IMG/VR virus record: IMGVR_UViG_3300035703_002708
DNA: 64,000 nt
Origin: a virus
Lineage: Duplodnaviria; Caudoviricetes
Strand: one strand, 5' to 3'
In this document: piece by piece, positions 276-36,044 of the stretch
Position numbering within the stretch: position 1 is the stretch's first letter
Layout of the letters: every line of letters begins with the position of its first letter
Translations under genes and position numbers: made by a program
Notes under the pieces: generated by a model
Databases searched by the model: none
The model's input: the letters and a program-made list of their open reading frames with translations, nothing else
Told to the model about the DNA's origin: nothing

Positions 276-3200
276 ATGGCTCAACAAAACATTAACCAAT
301 TTGTTTTTAAGAAGTTTTATGTAAGTCCCCATTTTTTGAGTTTGACCGATATCTCGTTAGCATCCGATGAATTGGACTTTAACGAGGAGGTGGTTTTTTC
401 ACCTTATTTGATTGCTCAGACCTACGGGAACCGTCTGCCATTCTATTTTGATTTAAGTTCGACAGGAACAACTCAACAACCGATTTTGACTTATGGTAAT
501 TATGACACCTCAAATGTTATAGTTTCTGAAAATTATTATAATCCCGAAAATTTAGATTTAAGTTGTTTTACGGCACAAACCGCATGTGATATAGGACTTA
601 CAGGTATAGACAATGGTCTTGTAACGGGAATGACTGGACAGTCCATCACATTTACAAATGGATTATTAGATGATTCACAAAAATTTGATAGATTAAGTTT
701 TGATAGAAGATTAAAACTTTTTCAAGTTACGGGATATACCTCACAAAATATTCAATTTTCAGGTATAACAGGTAGAACACTTTTTGAGATAGTTTCTAAA
801 ACAGGAACAACCGAAGGATATTACCAAGAACTATACGGAGGTTTTTATCAAGGTTTTTACAAATTATTTGGTTACGACTATGATATCTTTCCAAGTAGAA
901 TGAATAAAGGTTGGGCGGTTGAAATGGTATTGAAACCCCGACTTTCCAACGAATATGCTCCATCTTCAGGAGAAACAACACTTAACGAAATTTATCCTGA
1001 TAACAAAAATACATTTTTTTATTTTGGTACAAGGGCTGAAAATAAATTTGGTCATCACGCATCAGGAAGTCCCGCATCTGATAGTGGATATACAAGAGTA
1101 ACACAAGGATTAGAAACTTGTTTGAAAACTTGTGCGTGTGCTGATACAGGAGTAACAAATTCTAGATGTGTTGATGTTTATGAGCCATCAGGAGAAACAA
1201 TTGTTCATAACGTAAATTGTAATTGTGGTTGTAATAACGCAACTATCGAAAATACTCCTGACAAAGACCCACTTTTAGATTCAATCTCAAACGCAATTTC
1301 TTTTAGATTATGTGGTGATGATGAATCAAATCCAAAAATTGGTGTAAGAATACTCAGATATACAGGTGGATGTGAAACTACAGGAAGTTGTGATACATCT
1401 GGTATTACATACACAACAGGATATACTGTTGATGAATATTGTAGTGAAAATGGAATTTACGATTATTGTTTGACCAAAAATTCGGCTTACACAAATTCTG
1501 AACATTGGTTTTTGGTTGATATTGTGTGGGAACGTTATACATGGCTAGACACCTGTGATTTATTTTACAGAGGTGGGTTAGGCGACATATCAAAATTTGT
1601 CTATTTAGATTCGTTAGCGAATAATTCAGTTTACCTAATTGAACCTCCAGCAACTAAAAGCGGAGCAACTCCACCTGAACAAATAGAAATCGTAAGATTA
1701 AATGAGAAGTGGTTATTGGATAAACAGTACCGTATGGGTAGATTAAAAATCTACGTAAATGGTAAAATATTCTATACGGTAGAAGATGTTGAGGAGATTA
1801 TACCGAGAGCACTTGACACATATAAAGAAAGACAACTTGGTGTTCCTTTTAATATATCGTGGGGTGGTGGTACGATTGGTCTACGAGAAAATTTAACGTT
1901 TTCAGCATGTCCGACTGGAACTACCAATGTTTACATTCAAGACCCTGAATTATTTCCTAATAATGTTTTAAGTGCCACTTCATTATCATCACTTACTACA
2001 AACATTTTAATCGAACCTAATTTTGCAGGTACCTTTGATGGGGGTATCTCACAATTCAGAATGTATGTTTCTCCCTTATCGGCTCCGGAAGTAAAACATA
2101 ATTTTGAATTACTAAAAACAAAATTTAGTTTATTCAATCCTGATTGTCCTAATTGTAATATTACATGTTTGGAAGATGATTTTACGTACACAATCTTTCC
2201 AACACCAACGCCAACAAATACTCCGACAAACACTATAACACCAACCGAAACGGTAACACCTACAGCCACACCAACGCCCACTAAGACTTTAACACAAACA
2301 CCAACAAACACAGTAACACCATCGGTAACCAAAACAGTAACTCCATCTATAACTTTAACAAAATCGTTACCTGTAACACCAATTTCGACAAATACACCAA
2401 CAAAAACATCAACACCAACTAATACTGTCACTAAAACTTCTCAACCTACAGTTACTCCAACACCAACAATTTCTTTAACCTCAACTCCTGAACCAACCCC
2501 TATTCCTACCTCAACTACAACAAAATCACCGACCCCTACCAACACAATAACTAAAACTTCGATTGTTGAGGAAACTAATACGCCAACACCAACTATTTCT
2601 TTAACCTCAACTCCTGAATCAACACCTATTCCCACTTCAACTACAACCAAATCACCAACACCAACAAATACGATAACTAATACTACAACTATAACTAACA
2701 CACAAACAATCACATCGTTACCAACATCAACACCTGAAAGAACTCCTCTACCAACAAGCACTCCAACAAAAACACCAACAACTACCGTAACAATAACCCC
2801 TACGATAACTCAAACCAGTACAACAACAAAAACACCAACGGCTACAAATACTCAGACTCCTACAATTACAAAAACATTAAGTCAGACACCCACAATTACA
2901 AATACAGCAACTATAACATTATCTCAAACCCCTACCGAAACTCAAACTCCAACAGTTACAAAAACAAGCACTCAAACCCCGACAACAACTATAACTCAAA
3001 CAAGTACTCAAACACCAACCAAAACAGAAACACCAACAGTAACTCAAACTCCAACAGTAACTCAAACTCCAACAACAACGCCGACAGTTACTAAAACCCA
3101 AACAACAACACCGACAGTAACTAAAACCCAAACTCAAACACAAACCGTTACTAATACCGTAACCTCTTCAATCACGCCAACACGCACTCCCAAAAATACA

Positions 3201-5264
3201 TCTTTACCAACAAGTACCCCTACAAGAACTCAAACTCAGACGGCAACTGTTACCGCGACAAATACTGTTACTCCAACTGTAACAACCACAATTACAAAAA
3301 CCCCAACTCAAACTGTTACCACTACTAAGACACAAACTCAAACACCAACTGTAACAAAAACTCAAACTCAAACTCAGACGCCAACAAAAACTCAAACTCA
3401 AACACCGACAATAACAAAAACAAATACTCAAACACAAACACCTACCAAAACGGTTACATCAACACCAACTGTTACCTCAACTATTACACCATCTATAACT
3501 CAAACAAAAACACCTCCAAACACTCCTTTACCGACTAACACCCCGACTAAGACAACGACACAAACACCTACCACCACACAAACTCAAACTCAAACGTCAA
3601 CAGTAACTCAAACAGTTACTACGACACCAACTTTGACATCAACAGTAACCTCAACAGTAACACAAACAGTTACTAACACAGTTACACCGACACCAACAAA
3701 TACAGTTACACCAACGGTTACCACAACCCCAACGGTTACAAAAACCCCAACATCGACAGTTACTCAAACTATTACTAATACACAAACCGTAACATTAACT
3801 AAATCAAATACTCCGACATTAACATCAACATTCGGTAAAACTCCTTTACCGTCAAACACACCAACAAAAACTAGTACTCAAACGCCAACTGTGACCTCAA
3901 CTGTTACAACAACCCCTACAATAACTAAAACAACAACTCCAAGCCAATCTATTACTCCGACTAACACTCCTACAAGTACTTTAACTCCAACCGTAACCAA
4001 AACTGTTACTGTTTCACCAACAGTCACTATTACACCATCTATAACTCCAAGTCAAAGAGCGAGTATTTTAGCGGATGTATTGTGTAATTGTTCAGGTAAC
4101 ACAACTAGAAACATTTACGTATTCTATGATGGTTCAGGGTCTTACGAGGATTCACTATTGCAAGATGTATCTTTAAGTGTGAGGATGTGGTATTCAGGTC
4201 TTACAACAAATAGTGGTTGGACAGGTAACTTATATGAAATGGTAATTTGGGACGAGAGATGGATTTCATGGCCGATTTATCCAATAATTGGAAGTTTGTC
4301 GGGGGGTAGTGTTGGTGCCACCTATATAAGTAATGATTCTTTATTATATAGTGGTATAACAAATGATACTGTTGTTAAACAAACTATAAATAATGGATAT
4401 GAATTTGGAAATTTTGGTGTTAGCGACCCATACGGTTCTCAAGGTGTTCCATTCAATAAATCTGAACTTACAAACTTTAGTACTTCGGGTAATTTCACCC
4501 CTGAAACAGATAGTTTTATATCTATATGTGTAATTAATGAATCTTCACCTGTTTATACACAAACAGGTTCCACTTTGTCTAGTGGAAACACAGGTAATTT
4601 ACCCACAACATTCTATATAAATCAAACGGGTGTTCAGAAAGATTACAACAATTACTTGACGGCTTGGAGTTATTTCACAAATACATTAGGTAAAAACTTG
4701 AATAATTTATTATTCGTAAATCCTAACGGTAATTTGATTGAGGGATTCCAAACAATTGAAGCTCAATCATTCCAATTTATATTTGAATCTTTGGCAATAA
4801 TTGAAGGCCAAACAAGGTCGTCAAGTTATTTCTCAAATTATAACTTCAACGGAGGTGTATGGCCGAATATAAATTCTGAATTAGGTAATGATTGGACATT
4901 TGTCACATTACAAACAGTAAATCCTTTTAGTACATATACAAGTTTAACGGGATACACATCACTCAATGTGGTAAATCAGAATGGTGCGGGATTAATTAAC
5001 TTTGATTGGAGAATCGACCCAACAGTAACTGACTTCAGTTCTAACACAATTCAAAATTCATTTAATAGATTCTTCAGTGGTGATAGTAGTGAATGTTTAT
5101 ATACCGACTCACCTTTACCGCCTCTGTCTATTGGTAATGCGGTTAAATTATCGGGTATAACAGGTTGTTGGGAATATAGAGGGGTTCAAGAAAGTTCAGT
5201 AGTTAGGACACCAATTTCTGTAACGGGTTCAACATCTACCAATTGCTCTTCTTGTACTCCATGA
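276..5264 (+). CDS. Large mucin-like virion-type protein: LamG/ConA-like N-terminal region, Thr/Pro tract, vWA-like C-terminal domain
   Basis: 1662 aa. [22 protein letters not shown] resembles the LamG C-terminal motif. About 600 codons of TPT repeats (~2200-4050). [10 protein letters not shown] is a MIDAS-like motif. No signal peptide or TM segment seen. Confidence 0.7.
2200..4050 (+). repeat. Thr/Pro-rich low-complexity coding tract, including a ~126-nt-period direct duplication (~2454-2690)
   Basis: [13 protein letters not shown](P/S)[19 protein letters not shown] occurs twice; the rest is degenerate TPT/TQT/TKT repeats. Confidence 0.9.
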
Positions 5265-5290
5265 TATTTATATTGTAAAATATAATTATC

Positions 5291-8200
5291 ATGTTAACCC
5301 CTACTCCAACGACCCCACAAAATGTGTACATTCCATACGTGTTTCTTGATTGTCGTACATCAAGTTTCGAAAAAGTATTTAACATAATATACTCATCATT
5401 CAATACTGGCGATATAGTTTCCTATGACGATGGTGGTGGGTCAAAGTGTTATTTTTTGACTTCTTCAACAGGTTCTACTGTTGGTGTGCATAATTTTGAC
5501 AATCCTGAGTATACAAGTGGGGATTGTTCAACATGTATGTCAGCATATTGTGATTCGATGGCCGCATATGACTTTGTAAGTTGTTGTACAAATGATTTAG
5601 ATAACTTAATAACATACGGTATATATTTACCAAATTTTTCCGCAGGTACTGAAGTTATAGTTGACCCTGATTCGGGGGATTATTACCGTATTTATAGCGC
5701 ATCTTCAAAAGGATATTCGTATTGTTTCGAGACTCCTAATTATAATTCATGTGTTGACGCTTATATTGCAAATAATAGACTACCTGAATGTGATAGTGTA
5801 ATAGTAAGAAGAGCTTTTAATTGTTGTTCTGGTGAAACCACACAACAAATATTTGTGGCTACCAATTTGGAAAGTGGGGACACATTTTCTTTTTCGGGAC
5901 AGTGTTGGACTGTCGGTCTCACTGGTTCAACTACTCCGATAACATTAATAAGTAGTGGTGAAACCATATACTCATCTTGCACTGATTGTTTAAATCAAAC
6001 AAAATTTGTTTATAACATCTCTAATTGTAATACAAGTATTGGTTATAGACCTGTTTGTTTTAACGAAGAATTAACGGTTGGTCAGTCATATTTGATGGAT
6101 GTTTCCATTGGTACAGGGCAGACATTTTCATCAACTTGTTTTAATGTAATAGATAGAGAGGATGATTGTACTTCTTGTTTTGAGAACAATAATTATGGTC
6201 AAATTTTGTATGAGGGGTTTCCTAGTTGTAATATGTGTGTTAACGGACCTACACCTACACCAACACCAACCATAACTCAAACATCTATGGGTTATATTTT
6301 GAATCAATATTCTTTCCAAATTACAGGTTTAACCGCGAGTACTGGTTCTACTTTATTTTTGGATATTAACAATGAACCTATTTCATCAGTAACTAATAAT
6401 TCTGTGGTTATACGAATAAACTATTTGGATATTTACGGTAATAATAAAATATCTAATTATTCTTCTTTTACGGGTCTAACTGATTTATATATTAAAATCG
6501 AACAGGGGGATAGTTACGTGACATTTTTTTTATCTGACGGTAGTTTATTAGAAATCGACCCTGTTAATAATAATATTAAAATCGACGGTTATAATAACCC
6601 CACAGATGTGATATTGTTAGATTACAACCTTGGTAAATTTGACAATAGACAGTTTGTTGACATTTATTTTGGAAGTTCTGTACCAAGTGAAACCTGTTTT
6701 GGTGTAATCGACACAGTTCAGGCAACAATACCTAATGGATATGATAGAATATTAATGGATGTGGGAGATGGTGCTTTTTATGGGTTTGAACCGGCACAAT
6801 TTTTTTTGGAAAATTCTTATTTATTAAATGGTAATGGGGTTCCTGTTGCCACTTCCGAAACACCGGGTATTTGGATGGCAACTATGGGAAATCCTGGTCC
6901 TCTAAGTAGGGTTGGAGTTAAGCGGGATTTTACAGAAATCGAGGTTGTTGGTTGCAATTGGTGGGGGATTAGTAGATGTATTAATACACCCGTATCTAAA
7001 TATTATTTTATAGGTGTCAGTGGTGATAACAATTGGAGATTATATTTAGATAATCAAAAATTAGTTGACACATCATTACTTTCACCGTGCGGTCCATCAC
7101 AATCAGGCGTTGTGGGTTGTGCATCATCGTTCTCCCTACCGGATTATCCGTTCGAAAGGTGGAGGGTTTACCAAGTTTTTTTGGAGGCCGGTTTCCATGT
7201 TATACAGGTAGTTAATCAAGATTGTAACGGTACCACAAGTTTAGGGTTTGAAATATATGATAATACTCTTGAGGAGTTATTAGGTGCTCAACAGTTAACT
7301 GATTTGAATATATTATTCACAACTAAGTTTTATAGAGATTTAATTGAAACTGGGGCGACTTTGTTTTTTGATGTTGTTATAAACAGGCAAACTAATCAAT
7401 ACACACAGAACGGTTATGGTTGTCCAAGTGGTTATACATACGGTTGTGGAAATTGCTATACATTTGGTAACATACCTTGCCCGACAATTACCCCGACTAA
7501 CACCCCTACAATAACCCCGAGTCCGACTATTACCCCAACCCAAACACCCACTAAAACTCTGACACCAACAAGAACACCGACACCAACACCGACCAAGAGA
7601 CCGATGATGTGTTTTGAGGTTGGTACCGATTATGCACCCTTTACAGGTGCTTGCTCAGAATTTAGTTCTGGTTCTATAAATGGTAAACCATATTGGTATC
7701 TACCCACCATAACTTGTGTTCATAATCAAATTTATAGGGTCGTGTGGAGTATAGTTAATAATAGGTGGGAACTAATAGATGGTAGTAATGTTGTATATTT
7801 TTACTTAAACTCACAATCAGAATACCCGGTTAGTACTCTTGCTAATCCGTGGGTTCGGATTGCGCCATTAGTCCCTCAAATGACAACATTCCCTATATCG
7901 TCTTCAATAGGGTTATGTGGGGCACCATCATTCAATATTGAACTACAACTATCCGACCCTTGGAGTGCGGTTACAGGAACAACATCGATTCTTGATAATT
8001 TTGGTGAGACTATTTTAGATATAAATGGGACTGACCTTCAAATTATCGGTAGTACAGTTGATATAAAGTATACTGGAGGTACGGTCGCGGAATGGGATAG
8101 ATTCGATGATTTAGTCAAATATACAGGGTCCACAGGAAAATATTTTTCAATACAACAGGATTCGTCATATGTAGTTTTTTTCATATCAGGCAGTTCTATA

Positions 8201-26812: not shown

Positions 26813-28063
26813 ATGAAAATATTTATTCAAATTGCCTCTTACAGAGACCCCGAATTAGAAAAAACAGTTAAATCCGCAATTGAGAATGCAAAAAAACCGA
26901 AAAATTTAGTTTTCGGAATTGCTCGTCAATATCATCCTGATGACAAGTTCGACACTTTGGACGAATACAGAAAGGACAAAAGATTTAGAATTTTGGACAT
27001 TCCATATTTGGAATCACAAGGAACTTGTTGGGCAAGAAACCAAATCCAACAATTATATAAAGGTGAAGAATACACCTTACAAATTGATTCCCACATGAGA
27101 TTTGCACCAAATTGGGATGAAGAAATGATTGGTATGGTTAAGCAACTTCAGAAAAAAGGGCACAAAAAACCTTTACTGACAGGATACGTATCATCATTTA
27201 ATCCCGATAATGACCCACAAGAAAGAATTCAAGAACCTTGGAGAATGGTTTTTGATAGGTTTATACCTGAAGGGGCGGTTTTTTTCTTACCTGAAACAAT
27301 TCCTGGTTGGCAAACCCTTACTGAACCTATCACCGCAAGATTTTATTCCGCACACTTTGGTTTTTCACTTGGAAGTTTTGCCGTTGACGTACAGCATGAC
27401 CCCGATTATTACTTTCACGGTGAAGAAATCTCAATCGCGGCAAGAGCATATACTCACGGATATGATTTGTTCCACCCACACAAAGTATTGATTTGGCATG
27501 AATACACAAGAAAAGGAAGAACAAAACAGTGGGACGACGATACAGACTGGGTTACTAAAAACAACAGATGTCATTTAAAAAACAGGAAACTTTTTTCTAT
27601 GGACGGCGAAGTATATAATCCAGAAGAATTTGGTATCTATGGTTTCGGAACTGAACGTAGTTTAAGAGATTATGAAAAATATTCGGGTCTTCTTTTCGAA
27701 AGAAGGGCCATCCAACAATATACAATAGATAAAAACTATCCACCAAATCCATATAATTTTGATAACGAAGAAGATTGGAAAAATAGTTTCGCATCAATAT
27801 TCAAACATTGTATAGATATCGGTTATCATCAGGTACCTGAAACAGATTATGAGTTTTGGGTTGTTGCTTTCCATAATGAATCGGATGAAACAATATACAG
27901 AAAAGATGCCGACGCAGACGAAATTAGACGAATGAAGAACGACCCTGATGGTTACTGTAAAGTTTGGAGGGAATTCCAAACATCACATAAACCTAAGTAT
28001 TGGGTTGTTTGGCCATACTCAACAACCAAAGGTTGGTGTGAAAGAATAACAGGAACTTTATAA
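26813..28063 (+). CDS. GT60-like polypeptide alpha-N-acetylglucosaminyltransferase (Gnt1/OGNT-like, 'GlcNAc' family)
   Basis: KIFIQIASYRDPEL, LQIDSHMRFAPNWD and FHGEEISIAARAYTHGYDLFHP...IWHEY match the family signatures IFVSI.SYRD, QIDSHMRF and FFGEE...RL.THG. Confidence 0.85.
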   Translation: MKIFIQIASYRDPELEKTVKSAIENAKKPKNLVFGIARQYHPDDKFDTLDEYRKDKRFRILDIPYLESQGTCWARNQIQQLYKGEEYTLQIDSHMRFAPNWDEEMIGMVKQLQKKGHKKPLLTGYVSSFNPDNDPQERIQEPWRMVFDRFIPEGAVFFLPETIPGWQTLTEPITARFYSAHFGFSLGSFAVDVQHDPDYYFHGEEISIAARAYTHGYDLFHPHKVLIWHEYTRKGRTKQWDDDTDWVTKNNRCHLKNRKLFSMDGEVYNPEEFGIYGFGTERSLRDYEKYSGLLFERRAIQQYTIDKNYPPNPYNFDNEEDWKNSFASIFKHCIDIGYHQVPETDYEFWVVAFHNESDETIYRKDADADEIRRMKNDPDGYCKVWREFQTSHKPKYWVVWPYSTTKGWCERITGTL

Positions 28064-28065
28064 GT

Positions 28066-28905
28066 ATGATTGAGATACATAATGAATGGGACCCATTTGA
28101 CAATGGAGAGTGGTTCGCAACGGAAAGAAAAAATTTCGGACATAAGTTGTTTGCATATATTATCCCACGAATAATGTCGGAATTATTGAATTACAATTTA
28201 ATTGTTCCAGAAAATTCATACATTGGAAAAATAAACAAAGAAAATGGTAATGAATTTGAGAAAGTTTTATTTCCATATACTAGCATAACCGACAGATTGT
28301 CTTTCACTGACAATGTTGTGGAGCTCAATGACGAATCACTTAATGGTAGTGATATCGAGACATTTGTTAAAAATATAAATGGAAATAAAATATATTCTAA
28401 ATGTCACTGTTCTAATTACAACTACATAAAACCTCACAAGAGTTTGGTTAGAGAAATCCTAAAAGATTTGATAGTACCGAAATCTCACGAAAATGACATA
28501 TTACTTTTTTTGAGGAAAAGTAGAAGAGCACATACATATCGTCTACCTGATAGTTACTATTTGAATATTTTAGAAAACGAAAGTTTTGACAAGATGTACT
28601 TATCGGTGGATGATATTGACAGACACTACAACCTATATCAAAATTTAAAAAAGTATGACCCAATAATACTTGAGGGTGATATACTCGAAAATTTTAAAAA
28701 GGCCACATCATTCAACAAAATGATTTGTTCTCAGGGACAATTTGCGTTTTGGGCAGCTTGGCTGTCTGATGCGGACAAAATATATTGGCCAATAACAAAT
28801 GCAGGGCCTAATGCAGGACCCGAAGTACATCGTCACCACTTAAATTTAAAAGTCGACGACGAAGAAAGGTATACATTTATTAACATAGAAAACATTTATC
28901 ATTGA
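28066..28905 (+). CDS. GT11-like (alpha-1,2-fucosyltransferase-like) glycosyltransferase, divergent
   Basis: NFGHKLFAY (cf. GLGNQLFQY) and MICSQGQFAFWAAWLSDADKIYWP (cf. IIANSTFSWWAA.L...K.II.P). Confidence 0.65.
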   Translation: MIEIHNEWDPFDNGEWFATERKNFGHKLFAYIIPRIMSELLNYNLIVPENSYIGKINKENGNEFEKVLFPYTSITDRLSFTDNVVELNDESLNGSDIETFVKNINGNKIYSKCHCSNYNYIKPHKSLVREILKDLIVPKSHENDILLFLRKSRRAHTYRLPDSYYLNILENESFDKMYLSVDDIDRHYNLYQNLKKYDPIILEGDILENFKKATSFNKMICSQGQFAFWAAWLSDADKIYWPITNAGPNAGPEVHRHHLNLKVDDEERYTFINIENIYH

Positions 28906-29870
28906 TGAAAAAAAAAATTAAAATAACGAGAGGAAATTTTTGTAACAATTGTAGTTATTACTTGGTTAATTATTTAGTAAATTTACTCAAAAAAAATTAT
29001 GATGTAGAAATTTCTAACGACAACCCCGACATAGTTTTTTTCTCCAATCAATTCGTGAGTACAAGTAATTTGGACGAATACACCGGTGAAAATGCTAAAA
29101 CAGAATACGATTTTCCTAACGCAAAGAAAGTTTTCATAAGCGGTGAGGCGGTGGCCAATTACGATTATTATACGACAAAAAGTGACCAACACTTTACAAT
29201 TGGTAAACCTGGTGACTTGAATAACGAAAGGCATTTGAATATTTCATATTTTTCTATTGTTTCGGCATGGCAATTATGGGATGAATGTAAAATGTTCGAT
29301 AGTCCATTTGGTTGGTTAACGCAAAAGAAAAACTTGGGAGAAATTTTAAAAAATAAAAAATATTTTGCGGCAATAGTACAACAATCGACAAATGACTATA
29401 GAAGAGGTTTGTTTGATAACCTTTGTACCATAGAAAAGGTTAGGTCTTGTGGAGGTTTTGAAACTAATATACCTGATTGTTCTTTAGCGAACAGAGGTAG
29501 AACAGAAGCTGAAGCTTACGGCAACAAAGTAAAGTTTCTCTCAGAACATTTTTTTTCCTTACAGGTGCAATCAACGACTTTAGATTGGTTCACCCAAGAA
29601 AAAATAATCCAAGCATATGCCGCAAACACAATACCAATTTTTTGGGGTAACCCACAGATTTTAGATGATGGATTTAATCCTGAATCATTTATTAATTGTC
29701 ATAATTATTCTTCAATAGAAGAGGTTACAGAAAAAGTTAGAGAAATCTATTCTGATAAAAATAAGGTCTATAAAATGTTATTGGAACCTGTCTTTGTTGA
29801 TAACAAGTTACCGAAAGAGTTTGATGAAGATGTTTTGATTGAGTTTTTAGATAAAATTGTTAAACATTAA
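28905..29870 (+). CDS. GT10-like (alpha-1,3/4-fucosyltransferase-like) glycosyltransferase
   Basis: NPDIVFFS, KKVFISGE, KVKFLSEHFFSL...FTQEKIIQAYAANTIPIFWG...FNPESFINCHNY resemble Helicobacter-type FucT. ATG overlaps the upstream TGA (TGATG). Confidence 0.8.
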   Translation: MKKKIKITRGNFCNNCSYYLVNYLVNLLKKNYDVEISNDNPDIVFFSNQFVSTSNLDEYTGENAKTEYDFPNAKKVFISGEAVANYDYYTTKSDQHFTIGKPGDLNNERHLNISYFSIVSAWQLWDECKMFDSPFGWLTQKKNLGEILKNKKYFAAIVQQSTNDYRRGLFDNLCTIEKVRSCGGFETNIPDCSLANRGRTEAEAYGNKVKFLSEHFFSLQVQSTTLDWFTQEKIIQAYAANTIPIFWGNPQILDDGFNPESFINCHNYSSIEEVTEKVREIYSDKNKVYKMLLEPVFVDNKLPKEFDEDVLIEFLDKIVKH

Positions 29871-29875
29871 ATATT

Positions 29876-31312
29876 ATGGAGAATTACAAAAACGTTTCCG
29901 CAGAAAACATTTTGAAAAATTTGAGAGACAGAATAAATCAAGAAAATATAACTTTTTTACAGATAGGTGCAAACGACGGTTATACAAATGACATAGCTAG
30001 TCTAATTTTAAAACCATCAGATAAAGGAGTTTTCGTGGAACCCATAAAAGAAAGTTTCGAAAAGTTAATCTCGAACAAAAAAAACTTCTCGAACTCAAAG
30101 TTCGCTAACTTGGCAATATTACCAGATGAACTGCAAGATTACAACGAGATGAATTTGTTATCCGATTGCCCCTCTAATTTAGGTGCATCATTCAGTTTAT
30201 TTAATCGAGGTAGAATAATCAAAACAGAAAAAGTGGATGTGTCAACACCATTGGAATTTCTATACAGTTATAGAATAAACGATTTGGATTTTTTATTTTG
30301 TAACGCTTCGACATTGGACCATTTAATTGTTTTGGACACCGTGAAACGAATACAACCAAAAGTTTTATTCTTCAACACTTGTTATTGGTGTAACAATGAT
30401 TATGAGTTGGAATTAACAGATACTGTAAAGATAACCATTCCATCAAGAAAAAAAATGAAGGAATTTTTAAATAATTTAAATTATGAGGTTATCGATTTAT
30501 GGGAGAATTCGGAAAACAAAAGAGAAGACATATTGGCATTTAAAAAAGAATTGAATGGGGATTTCGTCGAGATAATAGAACCTAAAGTAATCGAAAAATT
30601 AGAACCAAAACAAGTTAGTATTAATCACAATTTAGAAAAGGTAATTTCATTCACACTTTTCGGTAACAACTTAAAATACTATGTTGGTGCGGAAAAAAAT
30701 ATTGAAATTAATAAAAAACTTCTACCTGATTGGACAAACGTAATATACTACCACAAAGACAGTATTTTACCAGGTTATGTAGAAAAATTGACAAACTTGG
30801 GGGCAAAACTAATCGATGTTAGTTCAATTATTATATCGGGAAAAGAAAGCATCCAATTCCAATATTTTTGGAGATTTTTCAGTTTTTTCGAAGAAGGGAT
30901 TTCTATTGTTAGAGATTTAGATAGTAGATTTTCAGAGAGAGAAGTTAAATACATAAACGAATGGTTGAAATCAAGTAAGAATTACTTTATCATACGAGAC
31001 CATCCTTGGCATTCACAAGTACCTAGTGGATTGTTCGGTATCAAAAATAAAGATGAAGAATTCAAAACACATTTCGAAGACTTTATAAAAAATTCAGAAA
31101 TCAGATGGGGAAGCGACCAAGATATACTATTCCAATTCATGGAAAGAAAAAACAAAAATGAAGTTTTTTATTGTGGATTTGATGATAATGAAAACTATAT
31201 TCCAAGAGACAATAAAAATTTCTTTATAGGTATGCAAATAGACGAAAATGAACAACCACTAAACCCAAGTGCGACTGTTGCATTGGAATTTCTAGAAAGT
31301 ATTAATTTATAA
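29876..31312 (+). CDS. FkbM-like methyltransferase fused to a putative GT-A-type domain
   Basis: N-terminal FLQIGANDG...GVFVEP. C-terminal KVISFTLFG...WRF...VRDLDSR...IIRDHPWH...DQDIL. Confidence 0.6.
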   Translation: MENYKNVSAENILKNLRDRINQENITFLQIGANDGYTNDIASLILKPSDKGVFVEPIKESFEKLISNKKNFSNSKFANLAILPDELQDYNEMNLLSDCPSNLGASFSLFNRGRIIKTEKVDVSTPLEFLYSYRINDLDFLFCNASTLDHLIVLDTVKRIQPKVLFFNTCYWCNNDYELELTDTVKITIPSRKKMKEFLNNLNYEVIDLWENSENKREDILAFKKELNGDFVEIIEPKVIEKLEPKQVSINHNLEKVISFTLFGNNLKYYVGAEKNIEINKKLLPDWTNVIYYHKDSILPGYVEKLTNLGAKLIDVSSIIISGKESIQFQYFWRFFSFFEEGISIVRDLDSRFSEREVKYINEWLKSSKNYFIIRDHPWHSQVPSGLFGIKNKDEEFKTHFEDFIKNSEIRWGSDQDILFQFMERKNKNEVFYCGFDDNENYIPRDNKNFFIGMQIDENEQPLNPSATVALEFLESINL

Positions 31313-31314
31313 TA

Positions 31315-32034
31315 ATGGCTTATTCTTATTGTTTCTGTACAGTTGCAGTCGGTCAACCCTACCTTGATTCTGCTTTGACTTTTGCTAAAGTGCTAAATGA
31401 AAAGTCAAAAGGACATCATATGATTATAGTCACTGATGAAACAGTGGAAGAAAAGATAGACAATACCACCATCACCCTATTACCCAACGACAAAAAAAAA
31501 TTTATAGGACCTTGGTTCAATTGGATGTTGAAATACTATCCAATTAAAGTGGCCAAAGATTTGGGTTTCGATTTCATCGTTTTTTTGGACGCTGATTGGA
31601 GACTAACATCATTTTATGACGAAAATGGATTGAGAAACGTTTTCAAATTTATGGTTGAGTCCGATGTCGACATATGTTTTGAAAGACCATACAGGATAGG
31701 TAGTGCGAAAAAAGATGGGCGACATTGTATTTTTTCACATAAAGTCGAATTTTATAATCTATTGGAAACTGAAGAGTACGATGACGGACACGCATGTAAT
31801 GAACAATTCTTGATTTTAAAAAAATCCGAAAAGTTGAACTTGTTCGTATCTAAGTTTGAAGAACTCCATGATAAAAGTTCCGAACACAATATTTGGCCAT
31901 TTTGTGAAGGATTAGAAATTGGAATGTCAATGTCATTCGCAAAAATGAATATGAATTGGGGTGGATGGGAACCACATTTGAGAAACATGTTTGAATTTAC
32001 ATGTAAAAATGGTGGAATAAATGTTAGATATTAA
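31315..32034 (+). CDS. Putative GT-A fold glycosyltransferase
   Basis: CTVAVGQPY N-terminal strand, WMLKYYPI and a DxD motif in IVFLDADW; located inside the GT cluster. Confidence 0.55.
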   Translation: MAYSYCFCTVAVGQPYLDSALTFAKVLNEKSKGHHMIIVTDETVEEKIDNTTITLLPNDKKKFIGPWFNWMLKYYPIKVAKDLGFDFIVFLDADWRLTSFYDENGLRNVFKFMVESDVDICFERPYRIGSAKKDGRHCIFSHKVEFYNLLETEEYDDGHACNEQFLILKKSEKLNLFVSKFEELHDKSSEHNIWPFCEGLEIGMSMSFAKMNMNWGGWEPHLRNMFEFTCKNGGINVRY

Positions 32035-32042
32035 TTTTATTG

Positions 32043-33671
32043 ATGGAAATAGAGATAAATAGAAAATGTGACATGGTTGAACATTTTGGATTATCAACCG
32101 TTAACGGACTAAGTGCACAACAACACCACGACGCTTTTGGTGTATTTAGAGATTTTGTAAACGAAGTCAAACCGAAAAGAATATTAGAAATAGGAACAGC
32201 ATTAGGCGGTTTCATAGAATTTATACACAGATGTACTGTCGAATCGGATTTAGGTACTGAAATATGGAGTTATGACATCCATAATGTTAGTTGGTACAGT
32301 GAACTCAATCGAAAGGGAATTCGGGTTAGAGTTGAAGATATATTTTCTAATGATTACTCAGCAGTTAAACAGGAAGTAATAGATTTCATCAAATCTGAAG
32401 GTGTCACGATAATAATGTGTGATGGTGGAAACAAAAAAAAGGAATTCGCTATATTATCTAACTACTTAAAAGATGGTGATTTCATATTAGCCCATGATTA
32501 TTGCGAAAATTCTGAAATTTTTCAAGAAAAAATAAATGGAAAAATTTGGAATTGGTGTGAAATATCAAATGACGATATTATCGACTCATGTAAACAAAAT
32601 AATCTAAATTATTTTAAGAAAGAAATATTCGAATCGGTTGTATGGACATGCAGGGTAAAAGATAGGGCTAAACTAATATCCACAGTTAATACAACAAAGA
32701 ATTATATCAAACCTATAAAAAGAAAAAAATTAATCATCCATCAACCGACAAACTTTTACAGTAAAAAAATAAGATATCACAGTATTTTTTGGGATGATTT
32801 GATATCAGAACTATCAATAAGGCATGATGTCATAGTCGACAGATATCACAAGGATTGTCATAAAGGAATTGGTAATGTAAAGTTGGAGTTAGACGTAAAC
32901 GATTCACCGTCTACTTTGAATGTTTTGGAATGTGAAATGATAATTGAGGATTATGAGACAGGTGAAACTAAGATTTTAAGTTGTGCTGACGATTTAACTC
33001 AAGCGGTCCTCAACCTTAAAGAAAATGATAAGGTAACTGAAATTTTTTATTCGCAGTTTATTCCCCAAAAAATATCATCCCACGTTGGGGAACAATTCAT
33101 TGACAAATACAAACCTTGGATTTATTTCCCATTCAATAAATTCGACTTAGATTTTTTCTATCAAAAAAGAAAAAATTTTGGTAAAAACTTAGTTGATAAA
33201 ATGTTTTTCAGCGGCGATTTAGGTTCTAGACCTTTTGTTAAAAATTTCGAAAAAAAATATTTAGACCATTATGGGTATTTAGGTCAATTTGAAACCTATG
33301 CAAACAGTTTGATAACCTATAAGGTCGCACTTTCTGTTGCGGGTAGAGGGGAGTTATGTTATAGAGATGTTGAGTGTATGGCAATGGGAGTTCCATTTAT
33401 AAGATTCGAATACTTCTCAAAATTGAATCCTAACCTAATTCCGAATTACCATTATATATCGGTTGATAGACCTGATAATTTTGACTCTTGGACCAAACTT
33501 GATAGGTTGGGCGAAAAAGAACAGGCGGACTTATTGATAAAAAGATTCTTGGAGGTTAAAGATGACCACGAATTTTTGAAATATATAAGTGACAATGCAA
33601 AAAAATATTACGAAGATTATTTGAGTCCCGAAAACTCAGTAAAACACACAATAAATTTATTAGGTCTTTAA
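32043..33671 (+). CDS. SAM-dependent methyltransferase (Methyltransf_24/CmcI-like) fused to a GT-B-like glycosyltransferase domain
   Basis: RILEIGTALGG and IMCDGG...LKDGDFILAHDY. C-terminal YKVALSVAGRGELCYRDVECMAMGVPFI resembles CgeB/exostosin-like C-domains. ATG is one codon after the track's TTG. Confidence 0.6.
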   Translation: MEIEINRKCDMVEHFGLSTVNGLSAQQHHDAFGVFRDFVNEVKPKRILEIGTALGGFIEFIHRCTVESDLGTEIWSYDIHNVSWYSELNRKGIRVRVEDIFSNDYSAVKQEVIDFIKSEGVTIIMCDGGNKKKEFAILSNYLKDGDFILAHDYCENSEIFQEKINGKIWNWCEISNDDIIDSCKQNNLNYFKKEIFESVVWTCRVKDRAKLISTVNTTKNYIKPIKRKKLIIHQPTNFYSKKIRYHSIFWDDLISELSIRHDVIVDRYHKDCHKGIGNVKLELDVNDSPSTLNVLECEMIIEDYETGETKILSCADDLTQAVLNLKENDKVTEIFYSQFIPQKISSHVGEQFIDKYKPWIYFPFNKFDLDFFYQKRKNFGKNLVDKMFFSGDLGSRPFVKNFEKKYLDHYGYLGQFETYANSLITYKVALSVAGRGELCYRDVECMAMGVPFIRFEYFSKLNPNLIPNYHYISVDRPDNFDSWTKLDRLGEKEQADLLIKRFLEVKDDHEFLKYISDNAKKYYEDYLSPENSVKHTINLLGL

Positions 33672-33674
33672 AAA

Positions 33675-36044
33675 ATGCCATTCAGTACAAACTACTTCAA
33701 AGAACAAACAAAACTTTACATTAACGAAAACTTCCCGAAAGAATCCAAAATTTTGGATGTAGGGGCGGGTTCAGCGACCTATTACAACATGCTGTCACCT
33801 TTAGGATATACCAATATAGATTGTGTAGAAATTTTTGAAAAGTACATAAAGGATTATGAACTTGAAAAAAAATATAACCAAGTATTTAACGGCAACATTT
33901 GTGAATTGGATATAGATTTCACAAAATATGACCTAATAATATTAGGTGACGTATTGGAACACATAGACAAAAAAAGTGCAAAAAAACTAATCCAAAAAAT
34001 CGGTGATGTGGCAACTATAATTGGTGTACCATTCGAATCTGAGCAAGGAGAGCATTATGGTAATATTTATGAAACACACTTACAGGCTGATTTGACATTG
34101 GATATTTTCTTAGAAAGATACGACGAATATCAACCACTTTGTTTGAGATTCGATTATGGTATTTTTGTAAATAAAAAAGTCGATATAATTTTTATTGAGA
34201 CCGGTGAAAAAGAACTACCTGAAAAATTTCAGAAAAAAGTAAAATCAGAATTTTCAGAAAAAAAAGTAGTAAATGTTGCAGAAATAACTGTCGAACAACC
34301 AGTAACAGAAAAAAAAAGTAGTGACACAACAATTGTAACAGGTTTGTGGAATTTAGGAAGGGACAAAATATCACAGTCATTTAACAGAAGATATGATGAA
34401 TATCTAACTAGTTTTTCTAAACTTTTGGAATCTGATGCTAACATGTATATATTTTGTGACCCATCCGACGAAGAATTCATTTGGAAACATAGGAAGAAAG
34501 AAAATACTGTTATTAATAAAATGACTCTTGATGAGTTACTGAAATGGTTCGAATTTACAAACATAACAAACGAAATAAGAACTAAAGAAAGTTGGTTATC
34601 CCAAGCTGGATGGTTAAGAGATTCACCTCAAGCTACTTTGGAGGGATATAACCCCTTAGTAATGAGTAAAATGTTTATGTTGAACAACGTAACAATATGG
34701 AACCCATTCAAGTCGGAATACTTTTTTTGGATTGACGCTGGGATAACAAATACTGTTAATTACGGGTATTTCACTCATGATAAAGTTTTTGATAATTTAC
34801 CCAATTTCATAAACTCCAATGGAGAATTCATGTTTATTTCTTATCCATATATAGGTGGTGGTGAGATTCATGGATTTGAGAGAGAGGCAATTGCTAAATA
34901 CTCAAACACTGACTATGTCGATTATGTGTGTAGAGGAGGATTTTTTGGTGGAATCAAAGAAAAAGTGAACGAAATTAATGGAAAATATTATTACTACCTG
35001 TCTAAAACCTTGAATGATGGATTCATGGGTACAGAGGAAAGTGTGTTTACCATAATTTCGAACTTGGAAAAAGATATTTACAGATTTGTAATTGAGGATA
35101 ACGGACTTATTTGGCCTTTTTTCGAAGAATTGAAAAATTATAAAAACCTGAAACCAAAACCAATAAAGGAATTTAATCCGAATTCGTTAATTGATAAAAT
35201 AAGTGAAAATACAAAACAAGAAAAAAATAAAAATCCTGAAGAAATTGCTTTATATGTAATTGGGTTCAATTCCCCAAATCAGTTCAAAACCTTGATTCAT
35301 TCTATGGTTTTTTATGACAAAGATTTTTTAGAAAAACCAAAGAAATATTTATTGGATAACTCAACAGACCTTTCTACAACAGAAGAGTACCAACATCTTT
35401 GTAGTGTTTATGGTTTCGAGCACATTAAAAAAGATAATATTGGTATAACCGGCGGAAGACAATGGATTGCGGAACATTTCGAGGCAAGCGGACACAAGTA
35501 TTATATGTTTTTTGAAGACGATATGTTTTTTTCTTCAGATAGGATTGGAGTGTGTAGAAACGGTTTCAACAGATATGTTCCAAATTTACTCTCAAAACTT
35601 TTAAAAATAATGAAATCCGAAAGATTCCATTATCTAAAATTCAACTTTTCTGAATTTTTTGGTGACAACGGTACTCAGTGGTCTTGGTATAACGTACCTC
35701 AAGTTGTCAGAGAAAAAGAATTTCCTGAAAAAACAAAATTACCTCAACAAGGATTAGACCCCGAGGCGCCAAGGACTATATTTAAGAATATAAAAAGTGT
35801 TGAAGGATTGTCTTATATTACAGGTGATGTGTACTATTCTAATTGGCCTCAGATTATGTCAAAAGAAGGAAATAGAAAATGTTTCATTGATACAAAGTTT
35901 CAGTTTCCTTACGAACAAACAATAATGTCATTTATTTTTCAAGAAACTAGAAAAGGAAATATCAAACCCGCACTATTGTTACTGACACCAACTGAACATA
36001 ATAGGTTTGACCACTATGACGCATCTTTGAGAAAAGAGTGTTAA
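33675..36044 (+). CDS. Three-domain protein: class I methyltransferase + HtrL/YibB(WlaTC)-like domain + GT2-like domain
   Basis: KILDVGAGS...DLIILGDVLEH; TTIVTGLWNLGR...SKMFML...NPFKSEYFFWIDAG...GGFFGG...GTEE; YYMFFEDDMF. Confidence 0.65.
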   Translation: MPFSTNYFKEQTKLYINENFPKESKILDVGAGSATYYNMLSPLGYTNIDCVEIFEKYIKDYELEKKYNQVFNGNICELDIDFTKYDLIILGDVLEHIDKKSAKKLIQKIGDVATIIGVPFESEQGEHYGNIYETHLQADLTLDIFLERYDEYQPLCLRFDYGIFVNKKVDIIFIETGEKELPEKFQKKVKSEFSEKKVVNVAEITVEQPVTEKKSSDTTIVTGLWNLGRDKISQSFNRRYDEYLTSFSKLLESDANMYIFCDPSDEEFIWKHRKKENTVINKMTLDELLKWFEFTNITNEIRTKESWLSQAGWLRDSPQATLEGYNPLVMSKMFMLNNVTIWNPFKSEYFFWIDAGITNTVNYGYFTHDKVFDNLPNFINSNGEFMFISYPYIGGGEIHGFEREAIAKYSNTDYVDYVCRGGFFGGIKEKVNEINGKYYYYLSKTLNDGFMGTEESVFTIISNLEKDIYRFVIEDNGLIWPFFEELKNYKNLKPKPIKEFNPNSLIDKISENTKQEKNKNPEEIALYVIGFNSPNQFKTLIHSMVFYDKDFLEKPKKYLLDNSTDLSTTEEYQHLCSVYGFEHIKKDNIGITGGRQWIAEHFEASGHKYYMFFEDDMFFSSDRIGVCRNGFNRYVPNLLSKLLKIMKSERFHYLKFNFSEFFGDNGTQWSWYNVPQVVREKEFPEKTKLPQQGLDPEAPRTIFKNIKSVEGLSYITGDVYYSNWPQIMSKEGNRKCFIDTKFQFPYEQTIMSFIFQETRKGNIKPALLLLTPTEHNRFDHYDASLRKEC

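Follow-up and report, generated by a model that had tools for sequence, protein, structure and literature searches.

Organization of the locus

The window, i.e., the whole 64-kb stretch of DNA that was analyzed, encodes a sheath, a tube, a T4-type baseplate protein, and PolB, which identifies the tailed phage of the original prediction as a myovirus. Three giant Thr/Pro-rich genes (PT1 to PT3), two paralogous genes, and a glycosyltransferase (GT) operon that also holds methyltransferase (MT) domains are arranged as follows:

276–5264 (+), PT1, 1662 aa, candidate glycan acceptor
5291–9217 (+), PT2, 1308 aa, Cys-rich, 267 residues in four PT/TK tracts, candidate acceptor
9567–22139 (+), PT3, 4190 aa, 22 tract segments (1610 residues), candidate acceptor
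22185–24545 (+), paralog A, 786 aa, Cys-containing and tract-free
24559–26742 (+), paralog B, 727 aa
26759–26765 (+), promoter-like TATTTAT motif, the sole intergenic copy for the seven-gene GT block
26813–28063 (+), GT60 glycosyltransferase, 416 aa, putative initiating polypeptide HexNAc transferase
28066–28905 (+), weakly GT11-like protein, 279 aa, possible alpha-1,2-fucosyltransferase (lead only)
28905–29870 (+), GT10-family glycosyltransferase (fucosyltransferase-like), ~321 aa
29876–31312 (+), fusion of an N-terminal FkbM-type methyltransferase and a GT-A-like domain (aa ~252–478), 478 aa
31315–32034 (+), stand-alone GT-A (nucleotide-diphospho-sugar transferase fold), 239 aa
32043–33671 (+), fusion of a CmcI/rhamnosyl-O-methyltransferase-like domain (aa 2–209) and a GT-like domain (aa 228–543), ~542 aa
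33675–36044 (+), three-domain enzyme (class I methyltransferase, HtrL/YibB GT-A, second GT-A), 789 aa
36053–36074 (+), intrinsic-terminator-like hairpin (9-bp stem with 5 GC pairs, 4-nt loop) and T-run
36101–39913 (+), 1270-aa fibre-like protein with three PT linkers (132 residues), further candidate acceptor

The three consecutive PT genes had been described as carrying more than 2,000 codons of TPT tract with Thr at about every second residue, and both points hold: strict (Thr-X)n tracts of PT1, PT2, and PT3 sum to ~2,500 residues, Thr makes up 37–46% of tract residues, and the probability of Thr at position i+2 given Thr at i is 0.70–0.95, against 0–0.11 at odd offsets. In PT1, two globular regions flank a near-continuous (Thr-X)n tract (aa 632–1258; 626 residues, 46% Thr, 14% Pro) with strict period-2 spacing. 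Besides its tracts, PT3 includes DUF5122 beta-propeller repeats (PF17164, E = 2.8e-59), Cys-rich modules, a higher-order CPDC repeat array, and tandem repeats (13475–16426; periods 258 and 474). The TPTxTPT codon pattern was matched 96 times in the window versus 0 times in 100 shuffles. Because the DNA repeats underlying the tracts are degenerate and Thr codon usage resembles that of the rest of the genome, the tracts are kept as a protein feature. Pfam searches returned no family for PT1 and PT2, and family searches gave PT1 to PT3 no recognizable homology to virion proteins; we consider virion components or fibres a candidate role for them. Unglycosylated PT linkers are common spacers in many proteins.

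The two genes that follow are indeed paralogs (33% identity, E = 8e-53), with no Pfam, PHROG, or NCBIfam match for either. Next come the seven closely packed same-strand genes that had been predicted (26813–36044, spacing of −4 to +5 nt), closed by the expected terminator. The placement of this operon after the PT genes was only part of the picture: the 1270-aa protein, a fourth PT-linker protein, lies directly 3′ of the terminator, and the operon is thus embedded among PT proteins. This downstream protein combines DUF285 (PF03382, E = 5.8e-67) and PKD modules, a 275-aa gene at 42231–43058 carries a second copy of its N-terminal 227-aa module (E = 2e-45), and its synteny with GT60 is retained in most close relatives. 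Overall, 13 of the 25 TATTTAT copies are intergenic (intergenic DNA totals 1,884 bases in the window), and each of these 13 precedes the start of a + strand gene by 11–69 nt (22 nt for PT1, 26 nt for PT2). The GT cluster belongs to a structural/fibre module, with strand and motif common to the PT, sheath, tube, and baseplate genes. Since the motif is also found upstream of PolB, 8 kb downstream of the cluster, it is no proof of late expression.

Enzymes of the operon

The lead gene was confirmed as a GT60 (PF11397, E = 6.4e-67; phrog_24687, E = 1e-169), with a metal-binding-type DSH motif (D92-S93-H94) invariant in 25 sequences. Its predicted model (pLDDT 89.8) consists of a GT-A catalytic domain (~1–312) and an extra C-terminal beta domain (~320–416), and the closest folds are initiators of protein O-glycosylation: Dictyostelium Gnt1 (Q8T1C6, E = 5.8e-25, 26% identity) is the best structural match, followed by dozens of mucin-initiating polypeptide GalNAc-transferases (GT27) and then by the teichoic-acid enzymes TarS and RmlT. 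Characterized GT60 enzymes of T. cruzi and Dictyostelium transfer alpha-GlcNAc onto Thr of Thr-rich mucin domains, some of the resulting glycans are fucose-capped, and protein is the substrate of every characterized member (PMC8724618, PMC3769586). A Gnt1-type hydroxyproline route is unlikely here, as prolyl 4-hydroxylase was detected in only one of five complete or near-complete GT60 genomes.

The original count of eight GT-like and three methyltransferase domains is reasonable, with GT60, GT10, and HtrL being the GT/MT calls that exceed the Pfam cut-off, and the GT11 assignment a weak lead. The GT10 product passed the PF00852 cut-off (32.7 versus 23.9 bits; E = 7.6e-8). The 279-aa GT11-like protein fell under the cut-off (PF01531, E = 0.008) and had no PDB match by sequence; the same motif region was matched in all three homologs. 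The fold of the 239-aa GT-A and the domain architectures of the 478-aa (FkbM + GT-A) and ~542-aa (CmcI-MT + GT-like) fusions are read entirely from Atlas models and features. For the 478-aa fusion, feature scores reached 0.95 to Methyltransf_21 clusters, alongside a weak TIGR01444 match, and the model aligned to viral hexosyltransferase-like clusters (TM 0.85–0.88, by hit). The 239-aa protein, for which no Pfam match was found, aligned to nucleotide-diphospho-sugar transferase, GT6, and GT8-like clusters (TM 0.69–0.86). The architecture of the ~542-aa fusion, obtained by structure search with the Atlas model and accompanied by a weak Methyltransf_23 match, is a lead only because Atlas feature scores were <0.9. 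The true starts of the GT10 gene and of this fusion are probably ATG 28905 and ATG 32043, rather than the TTG one codon upstream.

In the 789-aa enzyme, a class I methyltransferase (aa ~10–135) precedes an HtrL domain (PF09612, E = 1.2e-16, in addition to MT families) and a second GT-A with an invariant E-D-D, the latter based on a predicted model made in the present analysis (pLDDT 85, two domains; match to HtrL P25666, E = 3e-14). Structural matches of the tandem GT-A include LH3, Mimivirus R699, LARGE1, K4CP, and PgtA. Consistent with the methylation functions originally proposed, the three methyltransferase domains resemble sugar O-methyltransferases (CmcI and FkbM; TylF in a relative). 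None of the seven proteins contains a 19-residue window with TM-helix hydrophobicity or a signal-peptide-like N-terminus, so that all are predicted to be soluble, as anticipated.

Conservation of the enzyme core and co-occurrence with Thr tracts

We identified 170 GT60 loci in IMG/VR and examined 80 of them. Nearly all of these 80, as well as XacN1 and RAS14, pair GT60 with an HtrL-type tandem GT-A (residues ~217–789 of the 789-aa enzyme), and the two genes are adjacent even when their order is swapped. The remaining GT/MT genes display lineage-specific gain and loss across the same loci. The cluster lies among fibre genes in many phages of evidently different hosts; in L016, for instance, it sits between a tail-fibre-like 2184-aa protein and a DUF285 fibre, and the neighboring fibre protein lacks a PT tract. 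A GDP-mannose-dehydratase-family gene (E ~1e-117) was found in four of five complete or near-complete GT60 genomes; we interpret it as sugar supply and count it in favor of glycosylation.

Co-occurrence of GT60 with PT-rich proteins, a check proposed with the original prediction, was largely borne out. Among the matches listed, 11 of 17 large contigs picked on TPT tracts alone encoded GT60, compared with none of 10 control contigs free of tracts. Among the 11 control contigs listed, the sole GT60-positive one was also the sole tract-positive one, with tracts flanking GT60. Fisher tests of GT60 versus tracts gave p = 0.001 and p = 0.004, uncorrected for phylogeny; these samples are small, drawn from the matches listed, contain fragments, and lack phylogenetic independence. 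When restricted to genomes ≥90% complete, GT60 was found in 3 of 6 with tracts versus 0 of 6 (p = 0.18). Both features also coincide in three genomes (G003, G005, and G020) in which no homolog of the sheath encoded in the window was detectable, and in Xanthomonas and Stenotrophomonas phages of high GC content.

Exceptions occurred in both directions. In some relatives, the 10 kb around the GT60/HtrL core contain no PT gene, which counts in part against the original prediction. Four of five large GT60 contigs of this type have tracts elsewhere, and in distant GT60 lineages the tract genes are tens of kilobases away. One genome (G002, 88% complete) encodes GT60 and HtrL but has neither a TPT tract nor a giant ORF. 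At the cut end of the G002 contig, we observed another hydroxyl-rich repeat, (Gly-Ser-Ser)n. Conversely, three genomes 94–100% complete (G006, G010, and G017) contain tracts and neither a GT60 nor a GT2-family gene, including 170 tract pattern matches in G010. The link between GT60 and tracts is far above the background rate and spans several phage lineages, yet is not absolute.

A candidate pathway for virion glycosylation

Taken together, mucin-like giant proteins and an operon led by kin of protein-sugar-initiating enzymes suggest that this phage probably glycosylates its own particle. The operon would decorate particle proteins in the cytoplasm, during assembly. Soluble GT60 would add a first HexNAc to Thr hydroxyls, most likely alpha-GlcNAc from UDP-GlcNAc, preferentially on the (Thr-X)n tracts of PT1 to PT3 and on the PT linkers in the 1270-aa fibre. 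The tandem GT-A, as conserved GT60 partner, may then attach one or two further sugars. Extension of the glycan could fall to GT10, the GT11-like protein, the stand-alone GT-A, and the GT parts of the MT fusions, and the three methyltransferase domains would O-methylate it, in this presumed order. We regard phage-encoded O-glycosylation of virion proteins as likely. That the Thr tracts are its main acceptor is plausible, with the chances about balanced, and we judge similarly evenly the reading as a whole, i.e., the seven-gene operon as a cytoplasmic O-glycosylation pathway acting on the phage's own particle proteins. If so, the fibres may be protease-resistant, stiffened, or masked, with a presumed benefit to the phage.

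It is possible, if rather doubtful, that the cluster glycosylates virion proteins at non-tract sites, such as the termini of capsid, sheath, or tube or the folded domains of fibres, comparable to mycobacteriophages, and that the PT tracts are plain extended linkers whose lineage is shared with GT60. G002, the near-complete tract-rich genomes without GT60 and GT2 genes, the tract-free fibre neighbor in L016, and the mycobacteriophage glycans on capsid and tail-tube C-termini (Freeman 2023, cited in PMC12619734) would all fit, but the genome-level association holds across lineages, the acceptors known for GT60 enzymes are mucin domains rich in Thr (PMC8724618, PMC3769586), and G002 does carry its hydroxyl-rich repeat. 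Remodeling of host glycoconjugates in the infected cell (lipid-linked LPS, capsule, or cell-wall glycans), either to exclude superinfecting phages or to spare progeny from entrapment on debris, is unlikely: although the best-known relatives of HtrL/YibB, GT10, GT11, FkbM, TylF, and CmcI belong to bacterial LPS/polysaccharide loci, and TarS and RmlT are among the GT60 structural neighbors, family searches detected no initiating phosphoglycosyltransferase, flippase, or polymerase in the cluster, which also lacks TM segments. The exclusive action of characterized GT60 enzymes on protein, the recurrence of the cluster among fibre genes across evidently different hosts, and the glycoproteins of XacN1 virions (PMC5852040) likewise argue against host glycans as substrate.

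Multi-GT phage clusters can also build DNA glycans (bioRxiv 10.1101/2023.12.21.572611), and hypermodification of phage DNA with a methylated glycan against restriction, comparable to T-even phages and 5hmC-glycan pathways, would be compatible with the nearby PolB, a ThyA-like gene in three of five complete or near-complete relatives, and a weak match to phrog_842 (beta-glucosyl-HMC alpha-glucosyltransferase; E = 1.5e-5). We nevertheless consider it very unlikely, as no hydroxymethylase, C5-MT, 5mYOX, or other DNA-base-modification gene was found around the cluster, although such pathway genes are typically clustered (same preprint), two complete GT60-positive genomes (G003 and G005) lack PF00303, and the structure search with GT60 matched protein-modifying enzymes and not T4 BGT/AGT or JGT. 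Finally, GT60 might modify a host cytoplasmic protein for takeover or anti-defence, in which case neither the other operon genes nor the PT proteins would be related to it; Gnt1, its closest characterized relative, acts on a single cytoplasmic regulatory protein. This appears highly improbable given that the seven GT/MT genes form one operon within structural genes, with a gain and loss pattern typical of surface-glycan loci, and that four of the five genomes lack prolyl hydroxylase.

Comparison with known systems

The proposed glycosylation of the phage's own particle has a parallel in Xanthomonas phage XacN1, whose ORF334 is a GT60 homolog (47% identity), and which encodes many TPT-tract proteins (tracts of 60–230 residues), some beside sheath genes. 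At least two Schiff-stained glycoproteins are reported for its virions, as bands that the accessible text does not assign to proteins, and that report does not link them, the GT60, and the TPT-tract proteins to one another (PMC5852040).

Genomic context of the cluster

The window (~34% GC) derives from a contractile-tailed phage that encodes, along with a tail sheath and a family B DNA polymerase (PolB), a T4 gp19-like tube protein, a T4-type baseplate protein, and an SNF2 helicase. Since the best PolB matches were Salinibacter phages at just 23% identity, no close cultured relative exists, and a megablast of the glycosyltransferase (GT) cluster against 50,697 phage records returned no match. 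The window itself spans 64 kb, and genome-wide statements rest on the genomes of relatives.

The layout described in the original prediction was recovered throughout: three giant genes (PT1, PT2, and PT3) carry >2,000 codons of Thr/Pro tracts in which Thr occupies about every second position, and are followed by two paralogous genes (A and B), seven tightly packed genes, and a terminator at 36053. Likewise, no TM-like segment or signal-like N-terminus was seen in a sequence scan of the PT, paralog, or cluster proteins.

Features of the window
276-5264: PT1, giant (Thr-X)n-tract protein, 626 Thr/Pro tract residues
5291-9217: PT2, giant (Thr-X)n-tract protein, 267 Thr/Pro tract residues
9567-22139: PT3, giant (Thr-X)n-tract protein, 1610 Thr/Pro tract residues
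26813-28063 (+): GT60 gene, first gene of the GT cluster
33675-36044 (+): gene for the 789-aa protein, last gene of the GT cluster
Directly after the terminator: start of a 1270-aa PKD/DUF285 fibre-like protein with PT linkers, the fourth PT protein
43950-46739: PolB
53455-56667: tail sheath
254, 5265, 9556, 22166, 26759, 36089, 39959, 43881, 53412, 57645, 58237, 59190, 61990: intergenic TATTTAT sites (span 254-61996)

Downstream of the terminator, the first ~227 aa of the 1270-aa fibre-like protein (36101-36790) are duplicated as a stand-alone 275-aa gene at 42231-43058 (39% identity, E = 2e-45), which suggests a shared attachment module. The fibre block ends with a DUF6734 protein (43062-43850, E = 1.3e-31) immediately ahead of PolB. 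Separately, a 512-aa protein on the minus strand (48224-49762) contains a complete Fe/Mn superoxide dismutase with both Pfam domains (aa 36-226), unusual in a phage, and a C-terminal extension of ~280 aa.

Transcription units across the window are marked by a promoter-like motif, TATTTAT, with 13 of its 25 copies being intergenic although intergenic DNA makes up 2.9% of the window (~35-fold enrichment). The motif lies 11-69 nt upstream of almost every plus-strand transcription unit, including PT1, PT2, PT3, paralog A, the fibre genes, sheath, tube, and baseplate, and also PolB, with a single copy for the GT60 operon. Its reverse complement is found at 48213 and 49786, upstream of two minus-strand genes.

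Giant proteins with strictly alternating threonine tracts

In PT1-PT3, Thr represents 37-46% of tract residues, and the tracts are strictly alternating (Thr-X)n sequences in which X is mostly Pro, followed by Val, Gln, Ile, Lys, or Ser. A Thr is followed by another Thr two residues later with a probability of 0.70-0.95, compared to ≤0.11 at odd offsets, while Gly and aromatic residues are nearly absent and charged residues are few. This strict alternation sets the tracts apart from ordinary PT linkers. In the window, the codon pattern for TPTxTPT had 96 matches, compared to none in 100 shuffles. The DNA repeats underlying the tracts are degenerate (65-88% matches) and tract Thr codon usage resembles that of the rest of the genome, so that the pattern is maintained at the protein level, and recent slippage was set aside as an origin for the tracts.

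Within PT3, a higher-order repeat at 13475-16426 (TRF periods 258 and 474) is built from small CPDC modules that contain Cys, with PT tracts of conserved length between them. Paralogs A and B are related to each other (E = 8e-53). A PHROG and Pfam search with the globular parts of PT1-PT3 and both paralogs identified no informative family, and these proteins are therefore placed in the virion by inference. Altogether, the 27 kb around GT60 contain ~2,500 tract residues, and dense Thr/Pro-rich domains, the candidate acceptors, are encoded together with a candidate initiating transferase.

A GT60-led operon of predicted glycan assembly enzymes

The seven cluster genes are separated by gaps of -4 to +5 nt, and the run ends at the strong hairpin at 36053. 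The first gene matched PF11397 with 226.9 bits (cut-off 21, E = 6.4e-67), a family also detected in relatives, and its D92-S93-H94 motif was invariant across 25 sequences, DxH being the metal-binding-type motif of GT27/GT60 enzymes. The top match of its AlphaFold model (pLDDT 89.8) was Dictyostelium Gnt1 (E = 5.8e-25, residues 2-312), followed by many polypeptide GalNAc-transferases (GT27), which initiate mucin O-glycans in animals. Pfam detected no ricin-like lectin domain of the GT27 kind, but the catalytic domain is followed by an extra C-terminal beta domain (~320-416) that falls outside the Gnt1 alignment. From sequence and predicted structure, we firmly assign this protein to GT60, with a predicted GT-A fold, a DxH-type motif, and a relationship to GT27.

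The other cluster proteins resemble enzymes of glycan extension and methylation. A GT10-family gene scored above the PF00852 cut-off (32.7 vs. 23.9 bits), while a GT11-like protein scored below its cut-off (15.9 vs. 23.9 bits), the same C-terminal motif region being weakly matched in 3 of 3 homologs. A 239-aa protein displays a GT-A fold (Atlas's own model), and a 478-aa protein is an FkbM methyltransferase fused to a GT-A-like domain (Atlas's own model and features). As a lead only, modelling hints that a 543-aa protein may combine a CmcI/rhamnosyl-O-methyltransferase-like domain with a GT-like domain. Finally, the 789-aa protein consists of a class I methyltransferase followed by two GT-A domains (residues ~217-789), the second with an invariant E-D-D. 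The first of these matched PF09612 (HtrL/YibB; 61.6 bits, cut-off 24.1), and the protein matched TIGR02192 below the equivalog cut-off (E = 8e-18). Its model aligned to E. coli HtrL (P25666; E = 3e-14, TM 0.67 by hit), and the two-domain part resembles the tandem GT-A enzymes LH3, Mimivirus R699, LARGE1, K4 chondroitin polymerase, and Dictyostelium PgtA. PDB sequence searches with GT60, the 478-, 239-, 543-, and 789-aa proteins, and a GT11-like profile yielded nothing useful. The original count of about eight GT and three methyltransferase domains is thus fair, with uneven support across the set (firm for GT60, GT10, and HtrL, weak for GT11).

Conservation of the cluster in related phages

At least 170 relatives of the GT60 gene were found in IMG/VR (63-90% identity), on contigs of up to 322 kb, and four cultured jumbo phages of Xanthomonas and Stenotrophomonas carry relatives with 44-47% identity. 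Across the 80 loci examined from these ≥170, a tandem GT-A protein of ~555 aa (HtrL domain plus second GT-A domain) accompanies GT60 in nearly all cases; it is methyltransferase-fused in some loci, and in others is encoded directly upstream of GT60 rather than downstream. The remaining cluster genes are variably present among close relatives, and one locus (L016) carries instead a GT25-like/methyltransferase protein and a TylF-type sugar O-methyltransferase. The cluster nevertheless stays among fibre-type genes: at L016, its neighbors include a 2184-aa tail-fibre-like protein without PT tract, three proteins with Gly-rich domains, and a DUF285 fibre. A gene of the GDP-mannose-dehydratase family was detected in 4 of 5 complete or near-complete relatives, which shows that these phages invest in the supply of activated deoxy-sugars, consistent with any glycan-building reading. 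Two relatives also encode thymidylate-synthase-family ORFs of 430-436 aa (G001:C1:60011-61096 and G018:C1:102906-103946), whose match to the family comes in two separate stretches, as an insertion would produce.

Among cultured phages, Xanthomonas phage XacN1 encodes a GT60 homolog (ORF334, 47% identity) and an HtrL-type partner (ORF330-like, 40% identity). Its Thr/Pro tracts are found in a paralog array (ORF232-ORF237), in ORF369, ORF370, and ORF372 beside the sheath genes, and in the giant ORF325 and ORF384. The paralog array (L419 549-9605) comprises six proteins of ~400-750 aa annotated only as hypothetical, each with a TPT tract of 60-100 residues at aa ~200-300. After GT60, both XacN1 (ORF333, L001 21409-23706) and phage RAS14 encode an annotated carbamoyltransferase (765 aa), which suggests a carbamoylated glycan in the Xanthomonas/Stenotrophomonas phage lineage as opposed to the methylated glycan suggested for the window.

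XacN1 virions contain at least two Schiff-stained glycoproteins, with ORF328 and ORF334 suggested as their makers; in its accessible sections, this report leaves the glycoprotein bands unnamed and mentions neither tracts nor GT60 (PMC5852040). The literature searched contained no account of phages with GT60/Gnt1-like genes or mucin-like acceptors.

Association between GT60 and threonine tracts

Close relatives had abundant tracts within 10 kb of GT60, and most distant relatives had none there. However, 4 of 5 large GT60 contigs without such a nearby tract displayed 30-120 TPTxTPT matches elsewhere, compared to 0 for a reversed-pattern control. Conversely, PF11397 was detected in 11 of 17 contigs ≥94 kb selected by a long TPT pattern alone. 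Among 11 large control contigs, drawn by an arbitrary AT-rich 14-mer since a sheath-based clade-matched search gave mostly short contigs, one had both GT60 and tracts, with the tracts flanking GT60, and the other ten had neither. These contrasts yielded Fisher p = 0.001 and p = 0.004 for small samples that are not phylogenetically independent, taken among the matches listed and including fragments; when restricted to near-complete genomes, the contrast was 3/6 vs. 0/6 (p = 0.18). The association extends beyond a single lineage: complete genomes G003, G005, and G020 combine GT60 and tracts without a detectable homolog of the window's sheath, and XacN1 and RAS14 also have both features (51 and 22 TPTxTPT matches, respectively).

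The co-occurrence expected across jumbo phages from the original prediction was therefore observed as an association relative to controls, with real exceptions. Three large contigs (G006, G010, and G017) carry tracts with neither GT60 nor a GT2-family gene, and one (G002) carries GT60 and HtrL without a TPT tract. G002 is the only GT60-positive large contig without TPT tracts. It also contains an ORF that starts with a long, collagen-like (Gly-Ser-Ser/Thr)n repeat and is cut by the contig end (L418, G002:C1:218111-219475, minus strand); this hydroxyl-rich repeat could be an alternative acceptor.

Interpretation

Overall, the cluster is likely a phage-encoded protein O-glycosylation system for virion proteins. 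The alternating-Thr tracts are the best single hypothesis for its main acceptor, with about an even chance of being correct. The original reading, i.e., mucin-type O-glycosylation by the phage of its own Thr/Pro-rich proteins, is thus partly supported: O-glycosylation of virion proteins is likely, while the Thr tracts are retained as a hypothetical acceptor. The strongest rival is that the cluster glycosylates other virion proteins and the tracts are mere linkers, which is favoured by the exceptions G002, G006, G010, and G017 but is opposed by the co-occurrence data and by the type of acceptor known for this enzyme family: in T. cruzi and Dictyostelium, GT60 polypeptide alpha-GlcNAc transferases initiate mucin-type O-glycans on Thr (PMC8724618, PMC3769586).

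Other targets can be considered for these enzymes. Pathways of DNA hypermodification cluster with base-modifying enzymes, yet none was found in or beside the GT operon, and the complete GT60 genomes G003 and G005 lack a PF00303 (thymidylate-synthase family) gene; a TET/JBP family search, which had no positive control, gave no match anywhere, control genomes included. Remodelling of host glycans is compatible with the LPS-type relatives of several domains. However, the cluster includes no initiating phosphoglycosyltransferase, flippase, or membrane anchor, and this alternative leaves its position within the fibre module unexplained.

Within the protein O-glycosylation reading, a bolder possibility is that GT60 and the tandem GT-A partner form one machine building a polymer glycocalyx on the PT proteins, a conjunction we regard as improbable. 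GT60 would place a seed on alternate residues of the (Thr-X)n tracts, and each seed would be extended into a polymer of repeating disaccharides by the two-domain partner, which shares its tandem GT-A architecture with LARGE1, K4 chondroitin polymerase, and heparosan synthase. This would make genuine proteoglycan-like fibres of the giant PT proteins, and an entire, widespread group of aquatic and plant-pathogen jumbo phages would carry a self-made, methyl-capped glycocalyx, i.e., a eukaryote-style mucin or proteoglycan system in the bacterial cytoplasm.

To date, mycobacteriophages are the demonstrated case of phages glycosylating their own particles, and XacN1 offers a hint of it. If the preferred reading of O-glycosylation on Thr tracts is true, a different, eukaryotic mucin-like chemistry is used by a large group of jumbo phages that is common in the environment, the gene being carried by at least 170 IMG/VR contigs plus cultured Xanthomonas and Stenotrophomonas phages. 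In the bacterial cytoplasm, a GT60 initiator would act on giant alternating-Thr proteins, and the glycans would then be variably extended and O-methylated. This would provide a new picture of virion surfaces, with effects on adsorption, resistance to proteases or grazing, and antigenicity when phages are used as therapy against plant pathogens. GT60 and HtrL, both poorly understood families, would gain soluble, easily expressed members with a defined candidate substrate, and bacterial production of mucin-like glycoproteins a compact toolkit. The question is directly testable, since XacN1 is cultured and already shows stained virion glycoproteins.

Comparison with known systems

The phage GT60 belongs to the same family as protist T. 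cruzi OGNT-2 and Dictyostelium Gnt2 (PF11397, DxH-type motif, GT-A fold), and the acceptors, presumed for the phage, are in both cases Thr-rich, Pro-containing low-complexity tracts. Some GT60-initiated glycans of Dictyostelium carry alpha-Fuc caps (PMC8724618), for which the phage GT10 and GT11-like proteins offer a possible parallel. However, the protist enzymes reside in the Golgi membrane and modify secreted proteins, whereas the phage GT60 is predicted to be soluble, must act in the bacterial cytoplasm, and has the extra C-terminal beta domain; the phage tracts are also strictly alternating.

Gnt1 of the Skp1 pathway (Dictyostelium/Toxoplasma), the closest characterised relative of the phage GT60, is itself cytoplasmic and soluble, and in both systems an initiator is followed by a two-domain GT, PgtA being among the matches of the tandem GT-A partner. 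Unlike the phage, for which the candidate acceptor is thousands of Thr, the Skp1 pathway requires a prolyl 4-hydroxylase (PhyA) and modifies one hydroxyproline of one protein, Skp1, which the phage lacks. A prolyl 4-hydroxylase (PF13640) was detected in 1 of 5 complete or near-complete GT60 genomes and not in the window, and a hydroxyproline route as in Gnt1 was set aside because the hydroxylase is missing from the other four.

Giant viruses (chlorovirus PBCV-1 for its capsid, Mimivirus for its fibrils) build methylated glycans on virion proteins with their own GT and methyltransferase fusions, independently of the host machinery, and the tandem GT-A partner has the Mimivirus glycosyltransferase R699 among its best structural matches. 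These viruses however infect eukaryotes and use N-linked or fibril polysaccharide chemistry, and the literature consulted describes no GT60-led mucin-type initiation in them. For mycobacteriophages (Che8 and others), virion glycosylation is established, with their own GTs modifying their own structural proteins in the host cytoplasm, as proposed here; as cited, these glycans are on the C-termini of capsid and tail-tube subunits, and the citing text mentions neither GT60 nor giant mucin-like acceptors (Freeman et al. 2023, via PMC12619734).

XacN1 differs from the window in host, GC content, and shorter tracts, in a cluster with a carbamoyltransferase in place of the fucosyltransferase-like and methyltransferase-fusion genes, and in a PolB with no relationship to that of the window detectable at E ≤ 1e-20. 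Both nevertheless share GT60, the HtrL-type partner, and multiple TPT-tract proteins, to which XacN1 adds its Schiff-stained virion glycoproteins. Taken together, what is new here within phage virion glycosylation is a mucin-type initiator from a family so far characterised in eukaryotes, in a system that also has giant candidate acceptors and a tandem GT-A partner conserved alongside GT60, and that is widely distributed in the environment.
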